This document shows, piece after piece, positions 24,701 through 62,918 of a DNA stretch of 64,000 nt; position 1 is the first letter of the stretch; each line of letters starts with the position of its first letter. The notes beneath the pieces were generated by a model, which was not told where the DNA came from, made no database searches, and saw only the letters and a program-made list of their open reading frames with translations. The stretch is taken from the IMG/VR virus record IMGVR_UViG_2851188095_000001, positions 2,846 through 66,845 of that record; one strand, 5' to 3'. Origin of the DNA: a virus. Lineage: Duplodnaviria; Caudoviricetes. The position numbers and the translations under genes were made by a program.

Positions 24701-24833
24701 GTCACAACGCCCCACTTTCGTATAGTTGGCGCAATGAATCCGCGCCTTAACGTACATAAAGCCAAAGGATTACGTAAACAAAAAGAAAAACACCGGTGCA
24801 CGACCGATGTCCTTCGTTTTGATTGCGTTAAAG

Positions 24834-25055
24834 TTATGCTTGATTGTAGAGATTCGGCCCATTAATGAGTCCGATTGAGTACTTAATCGTTTTCCCGTAA
24901 TTAAATTTACTGATTCTAACCTCATAACCCTCTTCATTGGGATTTTTCAACTCTTGCTTTAGCTGTCCGACGGTTTTTGTTTTTCTACCAGACTCTAAAA
25001 GGTCTATCATTTCCATATCATCCGGGAGCTCACTCAAACAATCAATTAATTGCAT
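24834..25055 (-). CDS. AT-rich hypothetical protein (moron)
   Basis: GGAGG RBS, own promoter, lower GC. Confidence 0.7.
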   Translation of the reverse strand: MQLIDCLSELPDDMEMIDLLESGRKTKTVGQLKQELKNPNEEGYEVRISKFNYGKTIKYSIGLINGPNLYNQA

Positions 25056-25104
25056 TTACAATACCTCCCTCCCACAACCAATCATAACATACTGATATGT
25101 CTCA

Positions 25105-25169
25105 ACATTACACCGACACCTTTAACGTGTCAACAACTTTTTGACACCTTTTTCGTGTCGGTGTATAAT
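25105..25169. promoter_or_regulatory. Back-to-back divergent SigA promoters forming an inverted repeat
   Basis: Plus: TTGACA(25141)-17-TATAAT(25164); minus: TTGACA(25133)-17-TAATGT; both contain GTGTCGGTGTA. Confidence 0.85.
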
Positions 25170-25192
25170 CGGACATATACGGAGGTGCCACG

Positions 25193-25399
25193 ATGACTTT
25201 ACGCTCTAACCTAAAGGCGCTCGCAGATGCACGCGGCGTATCAATCCGCGAAATTGCCCGTAGTATCAGTTACCGTTTCGACTCCGTCCGCGCCATGTAT
25301 AACGACGAAATGGAGCGATATCCCCGCGATCTCCTTGCGAAGTTGTGCGTCTACTTTAACGTTACAATTGCGGATCTCCTCGTTTTTGAAACGGAGTGA
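25193..25399 (+). CDS. XRE/Cro-like HTH regulator
   Basis: LKALADARGVSIREIA...KLCVYFNVTIADLL. Confidence 0.85.
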   Translation: MTLRSNLKALADARGVSIREIARSISYRFDSVRAMYNDEMERYPRDLLAKLCVYFNVTIADLLVFETE

Positions 25400-25517
25400 G
25401 TCCTTCCAGCGTTCGAGCCACGAACTCATTCGCGATCCCAACGCTAGGACCCGCCGAAGCAGGTCGCTTGCAGAGCGAAATGGCGTTTTTAACCGTAGCC
25501 AGCGGCGAGTTAACGGT

Positions 25518-25610
25518 TTACCAGCCGGGGCCACCGTCAGCGAATGCGCTGGATGCTACGGACAGTGCCGCGACGATTGCGAAGAATGTTGCGATGGCGA
25601 ATTTTTTCAT
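25518..25610 (-). CDS. Orphan signalling propeptide MKKFAIATFFAIVAALSVASSAFA-DGGPGW (30 aa)
   Basis: GGAGGT RBS; Sec signal ending A-F-A; C-terminal DGGPGW identical to the 48829-48948 propeptide. Confidence 0.85.
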   Translation of the reverse strand: MKKFAIATFFAIVAALSVASSAFADGGPGW

Positions 25611-25755
25611 ACGTAATTACCTCCGTTTGGTCCGCTAGTGCGGCCGTTTATTTTGCGTTGCGTATGCGCGCCTCGTCCGGATGGTACTGGAGTCATCGGC
25701 AAAGCGTCTTCGTAAGCTATAGTTAACTATTGGCGCGAATGTTACGGATATTGCG

Positions 25756-31407: not shown

Positions 31408-31440
31408 ACTTAGATAGACGGGCGCGTTTCCGTTCTGCAC
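31408..31440 (-). promoter_or_regulatory. Phage promoter/operator motif copy 1
   Basis: GTGC-N14-CCCGTCTATCTAAGT, also at 48370-48402 and 62886-62918. Confidence 0.75.
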
Positions 31441-47693: not shown

Positions 47694-48347
47694 TTAAACG
47701 GCAAGGTATTCGCGAATGTCACCAAAGCGATTGGCGTCGTAATGGCGAGAAAGGCGAGTCAATTTCCGTTTAACTGTTTCGTGGTGCATCCCCAGCGCTT
47801 TGGCGAGCGTTGACAGGTTTTTGTACTGCGCGAACATCTCAATTATGGTGGTTGTTGCCTCATCGCTAGTAGTCTTGGAGGACTCGATGAGGTAGGAGAC
47901 AAGGGAAACCTTGTCTTTTTCTTTTTTATCGAACATTTCTCGAAACACCGTTTCTTCGGTTGGCGACGAATATGCGGTATCGAATTCTTCGGCGATTTCG
48001 AATGTTGGCGCATCCGAATCGTCGTTTGCGTTAAGGCTTACGCTTTCGTGTCGCTGGCGGTACTTGTTACGCTCTAGTAAATCGATGCAGGCTCGTTTGA
48101 TCGAACGGTTCATCATGTGCGAAAAGTTAGCGGAACCATTGTATGACTTCGCACACTTCCATAGGACTTCGCCATACATCGTTTCTATCGTGGTGACATC
48201 GCTAAGTGTGCGTTTGGCGTCCGCATACTTTCGTCGATCCCATTCAGGCCGAAATGTGTTGTATAACTCGTTGAATGCCGCCTCATCGCGGTGGTCTCGA
48301 TATTGGATCGCGAGGCTATTGAGTTTTTGTTCTTGTTCCATTCTCAT
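47694..48347 (-). CDS. Phage RNA polymerase sigma factor-like protein
   Basis: DEAAFNELY, LWKCAKSY, FSH....IKRACIDLL (region 2); C-terminal HTH. Confidence 0.75.
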   Translation of the reverse strand: MRMEQEQKLNSLAIQYRDHRDEAAFNELYNTFRPEWDRRKYADAKRTLSDVTTIETMYGEVLWKCAKSYNGSANFSHMMNRSIKRACIDLLERNKYRQRHESVSLNANDDSDAPTFEIAEEFDTAYSSPTEETVFREMFDKKEKDKVSLVSYLIESSKTTSDEATTTIIEMFAQYKNLSTLAKALGMHHETVKRKLTRLSRHYDANRFGDIREYLAV

Positions 48348-48369
48348 CTTCCTTTCGTTTTTACCTTAC

Positions 48370-48402
48370 ACTTAGATAGACGGGTGACTTTTTCTTTTGC
48401 AC
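48370..48402 (-). promoter_or_regulatory. Phage promoter/operator motif copy 2 (upstream of sigma gene)
   Basis: GTGC-N14-CCCGTCTATCTAAGT. Confidence 0.75.
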
Positions 48403-48475
48403 ACTTTTTCCCAAAAAACTTTTTAGGATTTTTGTATAATGGAAGCTATAACCTGAAAACAAAGGAGATTTACAA

Positions 48476-48682
48476 ATGTTTACATATGAGCCACTGTTCA
48501 GAACCTTGGATCGGAAAAATATGGGTCTAATTGAGGTTGAGAAGGGGTGTAATCTCTCTAGCAAAACCACCTCCAAGTTTCGTAAGAATGGAGTAATGAA
48601 TATTGATACACTTGCACGAGTTGGTATCTTTCTTGATGTCCCAATAGAAGAAATTGTTGCAATTAAGCGTGACAAGAAGTAG
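48476..48682 (+). CDS. Small XRE HTH repressor (candidate cI, no peptidase domain)
   Basis: YEPL..L...TLARV..FLDVPIEEIV; divergent from sigma gene; AAGGAG RBS. Confidence 0.82.
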   Translation: MFTYEPLFRTLDRKNMGLIEVEKGCNLSSKTTSKFRKNGVMNIDTLARVGIFLDVPIEEIVAIKRDKK

Positions 48683-48698
48683 AGCAACCCTTGTTCTA

Positions 48699-48746
48699 AT
48701 CTTACCATCGTATATCAATGATGCTCATTGTAATAGTATTGATATA
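48699..48746 (-). promoter_or_regulatory. Candidate receptor operator (TATATCAAT-N18-ATTGATATA) plus extended -10 TGgTAAGAT firing antisense to repressor
   Basis: Inverted repeat 48711-48719/48738-48746; -10 at 48699-48704. Confidence 0.6.
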
Positions 48747-48786
48747 ACCCTTGATATTATCGACATATTACGACATTTTTGGGGTA

Positions 48787-48820
48787 TAAAAAAGGCACAA
48801 GCTATTTCTAACTTGTGCCC
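48787..48820 (-). terminator. Terminator after propeptide gene
   Basis: GGGCACAAG...CTTGTGCC followed by T-run. Confidence 0.85.
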
Positions 48821-48828
48821 TAATAAAC

Positions 48829-48948
48829 TTACCAACCTGGTCCGCCATCGTTTAACTGACTTACTGGTTCTGTTGTCACACTCTCTGCACTTACTACTCC
48901 AGCGAACGAGAATACGAGCGATAGTATCAACATGATTTTAAATGTCAT
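48829..48948 (-). CDS. AimP-like propeptide MTFKIMLILSLVFSFAGVVSA-ESVTTEPVSQLN-DGGPGW (39 aa)
   Basis: GAGGAGG RBS, Sec signal, directly after HTH-TPR gene. Confidence 0.88.
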   Translation of the reverse strand: MTFKIMLILSLVFSFAGVVSAESVTTEPVSQLNDGGPGW

Positions 48949-48963
48949 GATTACCTCCTCAAC

Positions 48964-50256
48964 CTATGATGTTTTAGTAATAGCCAAATCAAGAAGGCTA
49001 TTGAATAGTCTATTCTGCTCATCTGTGCAAAAATCCTTGTGCAAATGAAAGTCCTTAACACAATTTAATATGTAGGCGGGAAGTCCTAAATCTGCGTATA
49101 TCTCCATGGCTTTTAAACTTAGATCAATTGCTTCTCGCTGTTGTTGTTTCTTTGCAAACAAGACTCTTGAGTACATTAACTGAAATCTAGCAAATAACCT
49201 TTTTTTGAAGGGGTTGTCCCCTACATTCCTCTCGAATTTCTGCATTTCTAAATGGTATTTCTCGATCAAATTGTCAGCCTTTTCTATCATGCCGTGCCTG
49301 ATACATACGTCTAGAATGCAATGAATATATGGAGCGACTTCTGATTGATTTCTGTCTAGCCAGCATACGAATTCTTCAATTACTTCGACTTTTCCGCTTG
49401 CGATCATTGAGTTGAAACGATTGCCCTCGCCCCAGATTTTAAATTCGCTTCTTTCTTCACCTAACAGCGCTATAACTTCCTCTGCGATCTCTATGGCTTC
49501 TGAGTATTCTTTGAGGTAGTATTTTGCACGTAGTTTGTACAGTTGTGCATTGCCATACTGAACTTTGTCTTTCTGGCATATTGCCTGACTAGCCATTTCT
49601 TCTGATAGCTGAACTACCTTCTCCCACTTCTCTAAAACGAAGTAACAAGCAACAACTTTTCGATACGCCTCTAATTTATCAGTGGTTATGTTGGAAAGGT
49701 AGCTTGATAATTGAATCGCGGAGTCATATGCATGATCCATGTTCCAATTCCTTACAATACAGTACCGCTTGTACAGGGTATTTGCCAGTCTTTCAGACAG
49801 CTTGTCAGTCTCTAATTCGATTACAATGTCGTAGAAGCGTACTGCCGCACACTCCATGTTCTTACTGACAAGTTCGTCCGCGATCCCCAGAAATACTTCT
49901 GTATTTGACTGGCCTTCTTGGACCATCTCGTTAACTAAATCATCCGCTAAATGGGAACATTCAATCTCATTACATTTAATGATAAAGTCTCTGCACTTGC
50001 TACGCAGGCGGTTTCCTACCACATCTTTACATTCTGATATATAAAAGGGATAGAAATGTCCAGACGGTAGGTCTAGCACTGATGTCAATTCGTCTAGTGT
50101 ATTTAAGGTAAAATGACGTGTTCCTTTTAATGACGCAGAGAGGTTGCCCTGCTTCACACGCCCATTGGTTTTGGTTTCTACATCTTTTTGAGTTATATTT
50201 CTCTTTTTCATCTCTTCAAAGACAATGTTTTTTAAAGTGTTAGGCATTACTGGCAC
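48964..50256 (-). CDS. AimR-like RRNPP receptor (HTH + TPR)
   Basis: N-terminal XRE HTH, helical TPR-like repeats, about 430 aa, AT-rich, adjacent propeptide. Confidence 0.82.
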   Translation of the reverse strand: MPVMPNTLKNIVFEEMKKRNITQKDVETKTNGRVKQGNLSASLKGTRHFTLNTLDELTSVLDLPSGHFYPFYISECKDVVGNRLRSKCRDFIIKCNEIECSHLADDLVNEMVQEGQSNTEVFLGIADELVSKNMECAAVRFYDIVIELETDKLSERLANTLYKRYCIVRNWNMDHAYDSAIQLSSYLSNITTDKLEAYRKVVACYFVLEKWEKVVQLSEEMASQAICQKDKVQYGNAQLYKLRAKYYLKEYSEAIEIAEEVIALLGEERSEFKIWGEGNRFNSMIASGKVEVIEEFVCWLDRNQSEVAPYIHCILDVCIRHGMIEKADNLIEKYHLEMQKFERNVGDNPFKKRLFARFQLMYSRVLFAKKQQQREAIDLSLKAMEIYADLGLPAYILNCVKDFHLHKDFCTDEQNRLFNSLLDLAITKTS

Positions 50257-50291
50257 CCCCGCGGCATCAACCTTTACTTTCGTACAGGTTC

Positions 50292-50320
50292 ATTATATTG
50301 TATATCAAATCAATTGGCAA
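50292..50320 (-). promoter_or_regulatory. SigA promoter of receptor TTGCCA-17-TATAAT
   Basis: -10 at 50292-50297, -35 at 50315-50320; spacer holds a TATATCAA half-site. Confidence 0.75.
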
Positions 50321-50404
50321 TAGTTGTAATCTGAAATACCATGTCTTTCCACACGTAGTTTTTTAAAGTAAACTAGAATGACCACTTTATAGGAGGAGCG
50401 TTCG

Positions 50405-50641
50405 ATGCGAAATGTAATCGAGCGCTGCCTTCTCAAAGACTTACTTAAAAAACGGGACATCACTCAAGCAGAGTTTGCCCGAAGAATGGGCATACCACGC
50501 CAAACTGTTACCAAATGGCTAAAGCTTGAGGATATCATGAGAGCCGACTCGGCATATCGAGCTTCACTAGTTCTAAACTGCTCGATGGAAGATTTATACG
50601 AATGGATTAAGGAGTCCGAGGAGAAGGTGGCGGACAAGTAG
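50405..50641 (+). CDS. XRE HTH regulator
   Basis: ITQAEFARRMGIPRQTVTKW; LNCSMEDLYE. Confidence 0.88.
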   Translation: MRNVIERCLLKDLLKKRDITQAEFARRMGIPRQTVTKWLKLEDIMRADSAYRASLVLNCSMEDLYEWIKESEEKVADK

Positions 50642-50674
50642 GCGTTTTCAGTCTACTTGCCGCAGAATGTAACC

Positions 50675-62885: not shown

Positions 62886-62918
62886 ACTTAGATAGACGGG
62901 CGCATTTAAATCTCGCAC
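62886..62918 (-). promoter_or_regulatory. Phage promoter/operator motif copy 3 (head of early operon)
   Basis: GTGC-N14-CCCGTCTATCTAAGT. Confidence 0.75.

Follow-up and report, generated by a model that had tools for sequence, protein, structure and literature searches.

The window analysed here, a 64,000-nt stretch of DNA, is part of a 66.8-kb IMG/VR provirus record and has almost no genes on the plus strand. On the minus strand, at positions 25518-25610, lies a minimal propeptide gene, hereafter the orphan gene, whose 30-aa product (MKKFAIATFFAIVAALSVASSAFADGGPGW, then stop) consists of a Sec-type signal peptide ending in A-F-A which is directly followed by DGGPGW and the stop codon. Its ribosome-binding region (25611-25630, minus strand) holds a GGAGG sequence at 25620-25624, with a 9-nt spacer to the ATG. 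The gene occupies the 3′ end of the co-oriented run of middle genes, just ahead of the packaging genes. No promoter was recognised within 145 nt upstream of it, and no terminator was predicted between it and the upstream genes; its position suggests that it would be the last gene transcribed in the middle operon. A putative sigma-factor promoter motif, GTGC...CCCGTCTATCTAAGT, occurs in three copies in the window which align well (62886-62918, 48370-48402 and 31408-31440), and was not seen, by eye, upstream of the orphan gene. Downstream, a candidate 3′-end or stability hairpin can be read from the sequence at 25448-25465 (minus strand; 7-bp stem, UUCG loop, no U-tract), which the terminator scan left unflagged.

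The orphan gene sits within a variable stretch of ~0.93 kb at the middle/late junction (24828-25755), which it shares with a 73-aa ORF and with an XRE gene on the plus strand. The XRE gene (25193-25399, plus strand) codes for a 68-aa HTH_26 protein and converges on the orphan gene. Its promoter, a perfect sigma-70-type sequence at 25141-25169 (TTGACA-17-TATAAT), lies in the region 25110-25169 within the nested palindromes ACACCGACAC...GTGTCGGTGT and GTGTCAA...TTGACAC; this arrangement resembles an autoregulated operator which would also serve the divergent 73-aa ORF (24834-25055).

The second DGGPGW gene is found 23 kb away, in a module which also encodes an HTH+TPR receptor. The receptor gene (48964-50256, minus strand; GC 0.394) specifies 430 aa from a GTG start, the copy in the record being counted from M4 (427 aa). 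Fifteen nt past its stop codon and in the same orientation begins the receptor-adjacent propeptide gene (48829-48948, minus strand), which encodes 39 aa (MTFKIMLILSLVFSFAGVVSAESVTTEPVSQLNDGGPGW, then stop): a signal peptide with a VSA/ES junction, a 12-residue pro-region, and DGGPGW before the stop codon. It is followed by an intrinsic-terminator-like hairpin with a T-run (48792-48821, minus strand) and by a palindrome, TATATCAAT-N18-ATTGATATA (48711-48746), which is a candidate receptor operator; its two perfect half-sites are the only ones in the window, and no copy is found near the orphan gene. A second 68-aa HTH_26 gene (48476-48682, plus strand) converges on the propeptide gene. The stretch from 47694 to 50674, which comprises the receptor, the propeptide gene, the small HTH gene and the start of a sigma-like gene, has a GC content of 0.36-0.48 in a backbone of 0.50-0.55, which suggests a recent acquisition from a lower-GC relative.

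A profile built from 34 relatives places an XRE-type HTH at positions 5-78 of the receptor, followed by TPR repeats, and XRE-type controller proteins match this profile at positions 10-78 (E 1.4e-6); the single sequence stays below the Pfam cut-off (HTH_3, 16.7 bits versus 23). The AlphaFold2 model is all-helical (pLDDT 93.8) and yields structural Z scores of 18.1 with NprR, 17.9 with RapI, 16.9 with phi105 Rap, 14.5 and 14.1 with AimR, and 12.4 with ComR. The AimR values are lower than those of NprR and Rap and fall in the range of generic TPR proteins, which score as high as RRNPP receptors and also make up most of the Foldseek matches in the PDB. The predicted fold thus agrees with RRNPP membership without proving it. 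Only two close homologues were found, with 58% and 54% identity (P0005 and P0006, one of them on a 63-kb contig), and scans of viral, metagenome and genome collections with a receptor pattern gave no close relative. An exhaustive search returned 150 representatives of the receptor family at E <=0.001, and with a wider alignment all that came up were two chromosomal loci of Brevibacillus type which lack a clear propeptide. The window's 430-aa protein is an HTH+TPR (RRNPP-type) regulator of an AloR-like family.

Both mini-ORFs proved to be as the first-pass annotation had described them, each with a Shine-Dalgarno site, a Sec-type signal peptide and a DGGPGW-stop end. In the orphan gene the last codons are GAC GGT GGC CCC GGC TGG TAA, versus GAT GGC GGA CCA GGT TGG TAA in the receptor-adjacent gene, so that five of the six DGGPGW codons differ, all synonymously. 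GC content is 0.559 in the former and 0.425 in the latter. A recent duplication of the adjacent gene was considered and rejected on these differences in codons and GC, together with the unrelated signal peptides. DGGPGW occurs exactly twice in the six-frame translation of the window, and the two genes are among 12 small ORFs which pass a loose filter for a signal peptide and a Shine-Dalgarno site. A common C-terminal hexamer is by itself weak evidence: among 1905 stop-to-stop segments of at least 20 aa, three C-terminal hexamers are shared, the other two (SSSSHP and AYRTRT) being in off-frame ORFs, and block shuffles gave a mean of 0.17 shared hexamers with a maximum of 2.

The pair stands out by passing this filter, together with the evidence from related phages. 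Searching IMG/VR for DGGPGW followed by a stop codon gave 28 matches on viral contigs, three of which are clear orthologues of the orphan gene. The three records (G069, G070 and G071) are 60-69 kb long and 99-100% complete, contain exactly one DGGPGW each, and have 31-55% of the window in common at 73-82% identity, G069 reaching 81.7% over 35,426 of the 64,000 bases. In all four phages, the orphan gene lies between a phrog_13088 gene and a homologue of a 166-aa late gene. Across the four orthologues, six of the last 17 codons vary synonymously and no amino acid changes, while the front of the signal peptide accounts for all amino-acid changes and for a 3-residue insertion. The ORF and its Shine-Dalgarno site are likewise conserved, with the stretch CCAAACGGAGGTA.T.ACGTATG of the ribosome-binding region kept in 4/4; farther upstream, as in the flanks generally, G070 and G071 cannot be aligned. 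Read by eye, the alignment retains the UUCG hairpin in G071, where a stem pair is G-C in place of A-U, and has a hairpin with a T-run at the same position in G070.

The orthologues and this pattern of substitutions led to the rejection of a chance ORF and uphold the earlier proposals that the orphan is a real secreted-peptide gene and that conservation is at the level of the peptide, the last 17 residues being invariant in the orthologues while the two genes of the window differ by synonymous codons. The synonymous-only variation indicates that the orphan gene is under purifying selection in phages with this receptor, with another or with none, and that what is selected is the signal-peptidase region together with the hexapeptide.

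A scan for the conserved end of the signal peptide recovered the same three records and one chance match. Of 97 matches to the DGGPGW-stop pattern in metagenomes, none resembles a signal-peptide gene, a single one passing the loose filter only; the pattern is absent from 61 Brevibacillaceae genomes and present in one of 401 class-level genomes, there inside a 640-aa ORF. The orphan protein had no tblastn match among cultured phages, and DNA searches of the phage collection gave no match. It is also absent from a collection of 15 billion proteins, in which the receptor-adjacent propeptide is present, and thus was never called as a gene.

The receptor family provides a frame for interpreting the hexapeptide. 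It occurs in 38 of the 61 Brevibacillaceae genomes, where a single genome can have as many as 12 copies, and in 29 plasmid records (Paenibacillus 20, Brevibacillus 6, others 3). The peptides of the family were read from small secreted ORFs downstream of the receptors at 32 loci and in phage Emery, and most of the 32 loci have such a small gene with a Sec signal, co-oriented with the receptor. The cognate propeptides generally end in xxGxGW or xHGxGG, the latter very often; individual ends include HGGIGW, EDGPGW, DNGPGW, DFGPGW, LGTGW and EGPRW. In four of the 32 loci (L008, L013, L035 and L038), the hexapeptide is present twice, its first copy directly after an AxA site: the doubled propeptides carry HGGIGW after VSA, EDGPGW after ANA, DIGERG after ASA or DGGERP after VSA, and the same hexapeptide again farther on. 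This arrangement, a copy after the signal-peptidase site and one at the C-terminus, is seen in gp61 of phage Emery (L002:4233-4364) as in L013, L035 and L038, and would pin the mature signal of these systems. One receptor-adjacent propeptide of the family consists of a signal peptide and ...DDFGPGW only. Since doubled and minimal propeptides both occur, the architecture of the orphan product is a normal form of the family. The suggestion made in the first-pass annotation, that the junction of A-F-A with DGGPGW marks the mature hexapeptide, is borne out by these propeptides, and DGGPGW is well supported as a predicted mature signal of six residues. As it directly follows A-F-A, the orphan product would need no extracellular protease.

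Separate observations concern the number of peptide genes per receptor. At locus L020 (genome G058), two tandem propeptide genes, both ending in YDHGVGG, follow one receptor. No unlinked second peptide copy was found in Emery or in G027 and G031, two Brevibacillaceae genomes with GPGW peptides.

The first-pass annotation had named a lack of co-variation of the two peptides across relatives as a result which would refute its model. Among the four carriers of the orphan gene, only the window's phage has the receptor with a DGGPGW propeptide (n=1). At the corresponding switch locus (L098:13346-14855), G069 has a 457-aa HTH+TPR protein (Pfam TPR_12, E 2.2e-10; HTH_3, E 3.6e-3) between the primase and the sigma-like gene. 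BLASTP (E 0.027) and hhalign (probability 2.8%) show this protein to be unrelated in sequence to the receptor of the window, and the adjacent 39-aa secreted ORF ends in ...AVENSLM. In G070 and G071, no HTH-TPR receptor was found with the family profile or with Pfam scans of ORFs of at least 250 aa which have no counterpart in the window; the family profile gave short XRE matches only in all three phages. Seven further phages, related through the neighbouring PAPS-reductase-like gene, have neither receptor nor orphan gene (10-17 kb around this gene were read for orphan-like ORFs, and the whole records were covered by the pattern scan and the receptor profile). In the closest of these, L046, the variable stretch is missing: ~270 nt between the 176-aa homologue and a conserved terminator element replace the orphan region, and a plus-strand XRE gene adjoins the sigma-like gene in place of the receptor region.

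Peptide and receptor thus do not co-vary: the orphan gene is constant in 4/4 phages while the switch module differs or is missing. Because the peptide stays constant as the module varies, the orphan gene does not look like an accessory of the receptor module, and the earlier view of it as a purpose-built second source for the window's arbitrium-like system is not supported, related phages with another receptor or with none having kept it. The switch locus in G069 and the window appears to be a place where communication cassettes are exchanged. The contrast in GC content, low in the receptor module and backbone-like in the orphan gene, agrees with this.

The reading which we favour, at a probability of roughly 60%, is that the orphan gene is a free-standing emitter belonging to the phage backbone, that the receptor and its propeptide form a separately mobile, low-GC cassette, and that both peptide genes probably feed one receptor in the window's phage. 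The orphan product would be exported by the Sec pathway and cleaved by signal peptidase I after A-F-A, with direct release of DGGPGW; the hexapeptide would then be imported and bind the HTH-TPR receptor. That the adjacent gene and the orphan gene would both feed this receptor is suggested by adjacency and by the pattern of the family, and the receptor in turn probably controls the downstream sigma-factor gene, in front of which the cassette sits at a variable switch locus. The window's phage would accordingly represent a DGGPGW-emitting lineage which also came to hold the matching receptor. In phages without this receptor, the likeliest role of the orphan gene would be to supply a signal for sensing in trans, either in rival phages or through AloR-type regulators of the host. 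In its widest form, this reading would have signal and receptor moving separately, with a protease-independent emitter, whose signal most members of the lineage cannot sense, steering receptor-bearing rivals or the AloR regulons of the host, and with the window as a snapshot of a self-sensing system being assembled or taken apart; we propose this wider form tentatively and consider it somewhat less than an even bet.

Other explanations place the weight differently. The orphan gene may have evolved as a dedicated second source, the adjacent gene giving an early or lysogen signal to which cells committed to lysis add a late booster. The identical hexapeptide, selected at the peptide level, the place of the gene, last in the middle run and without a predicted terminator ahead of it, and the tandem propeptide genes for one mature peptide at L020 all accord with such a function. 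It is nevertheless quite improbable, as the expected co-variation is lacking (G069 has another receptor and propeptide, G070 and G071 have none), the two genes differ in GC composition, no candidate operator copy accompanies the orphan gene, and neither Emery nor G027 or G031 has an unlinked second copy. Alternatively, the orphan gene may serve signal mimicry in trans: its main targets would be receptors in rival prophages, pushed towards lysogeny or dormancy, or host AloR-type regulons, for which it would fake host density, and the match with the resident receptor would be a by-product of module shuffling. Purifying selection in phages which lack the cognate receptor speaks for this possibility, as do the abundance of the receptor family in host genomes, with up to 12 copies each, and the differences in the receptor-module locus among sister phages. 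We nonetheless regard it as rather unlikely, since no receptor with a DGGPGW propeptide was found in the 61 family genomes, in the 401 class-level genomes (1 chance match) or among the 97 metagenome matches.

That the orphan gene is a former propeptide gene whose role has nothing to do with RRNPP signalling, for instance as a small membrane or exclusion peptide, or that it is a decaying relic, would fit its very short length and the fact that it has never been annotated. Such a product would hardly be expected to keep exactly the signal-peptidase region and the hexapeptide invariant, with synonymous variation only. Moreover, it is the front of the signal peptide that changes, as expected if the released peptide matters, and the sequence contains neither a lipobox nor a second hydrophobic segment; this explanation is consequently very improbable. 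The free-standing backbone emitter remains the preferred reading.

Several known systems resemble the one described here. As in arbitrium (AimR-AimP-AimX) of SPbeta-group and B. cereus-group Bacillus phages, a temperate phage carries an HTH+TPR receptor and an adjacent secreted propeptide with a presumed C-terminal hexapeptide signal, downstream of the peptide gene come a terminator and a palindrome with widely spaced halves, and the AimR fold is among the structural matches of the receptor. The AimP hexapeptide ends in G-G or G-A, whereas the window's peptide ends in G-W. Among the best 60 of 122 profile matches to solved structures there is no AimR chain, and no aimX is recognisable, the region downstream holding only the palindrome, the plus-strand HTH_26 gene and the sigma-like gene. 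In the literature searched, supplementary tables aside, there is no report of a second, unlinked or orphan aimP or arbitrium-type peptide gene, and no paper deals with the present peptides in this sense. In enterococcal sex pheromone systems (cCF10, PrgX), the pheromone lies within the signal peptide of a lipoprotein and the receptor is encoded on a plasmid. Here too, signal gene and receptor belong to different genetic units and maturation would be performed by the secretion machinery, but the window's signal follows the signal peptide and its carrier is a phage.

The closest parallel is AloR-AloP. In the sections of Voichek et al. (2020; PMC7425212) which describe this system, a short gene whose product has an N-terminal secretion helix lies behind an HTH+TPR receptor, the mature AloP signals are six-residue C-terminal peptides (SHGRGG for AloP13), the family is reported in Paenibacillus and Brevibacillus with multiple copies per genome, and aloP10 alpha and beta are two peptide genes for one system. 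Compared with those sections, the present family has the same succession of a receptor and a short secreted gene, a predicted C-terminal hexapeptide whose length is suggested by the repeats in four relatives and by the two DGGPGW genes, multiple copies and the same genera, and many of its Brevibacillus members end in xHGxGG, similar to SHGRGG of AloP13. By the same comparison, the window's system differs in being phage-borne and placed ahead of a phage sigma-factor gene, in a peptide which ends in GW, and in a second gene which is unlinked, minimal and conserved in phages without the receptor. With tblastn, the receptor matches a plasmid regulator of P. polymyxa ATCC 842 (E 3e-9, 51% of the query). 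The window's system resembles AloR-AloP more than arbitrium proper. Its receptor-propeptide pair is probably a member or a variant of the AloR-AloP kind which is carried by a phage and would work as arbitrium does; as far as tested, it does not belong to the AimR/AimP family.

RRNPP systems of mobile elements offer a further comparison. According to the main text of Bernard et al. (2023; PMC10075063), Rap-Phr and similar cassettes are exchanged between chromosomes, plasmids and phages, and some elements carry several of them. The exchange of communication cassettes among replicons is a feature which the present system seems to have in common with those described there; unlike them, where complete receptor-peptide pairs are exchanged, the window's peptide gene would move on its own. 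This main text (PMC10075063) nowhere uses the word "orphan".

The new element is a stand-alone, minimal and conserved emitter gene. Peptide communication of phages is usually described as a closed pair of receptor and peptide, and a peptide gene which travels without a receptor would, if this is true, imply that a phage can send a signal which it does not itself sense. Deception, jamming and host manipulation would then become testable, since the peptide is known and matched forms of the phages exist with this receptor, with another and with none. Beyond this phage, the design of a signal peptide plus hexapeptide, together with the doubled propeptides, marks the likely mature signal in a large and little-studied receptor family of Brevibacillus and Paenibacillus, and the unannotated orphan gene shows that routine gene calling misses such emitters.

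Some minor observations concern the neighbourhood of these genes. Both DGGPGW genes of the window converge on a 68-aa HTH_26 gene, in a phage whose plus strand is otherwise almost empty. A duplicated cassette of a propeptide gene and a convergent HTH_26 gene was considered on account of this parallel, but the two HTH_26 proteins are without pairwise similarity, and no XRE partner accompanies the orphan gene in G069 and G070. A homologue of the 25193-25399 protein (64.5% identity) is present near the orphan gene in G071, in another gene order. Finally, one locus with a receptor homologue (L007) comes from a record titled as a Bathyarchaeia MAG; its gene order is that of a Brevibacillus migulae scaffold (L006), with near-identical proteins including the receptor homologue and spore-coat CotJ-like genes, and it is probably a mis-binned bacterial contig.
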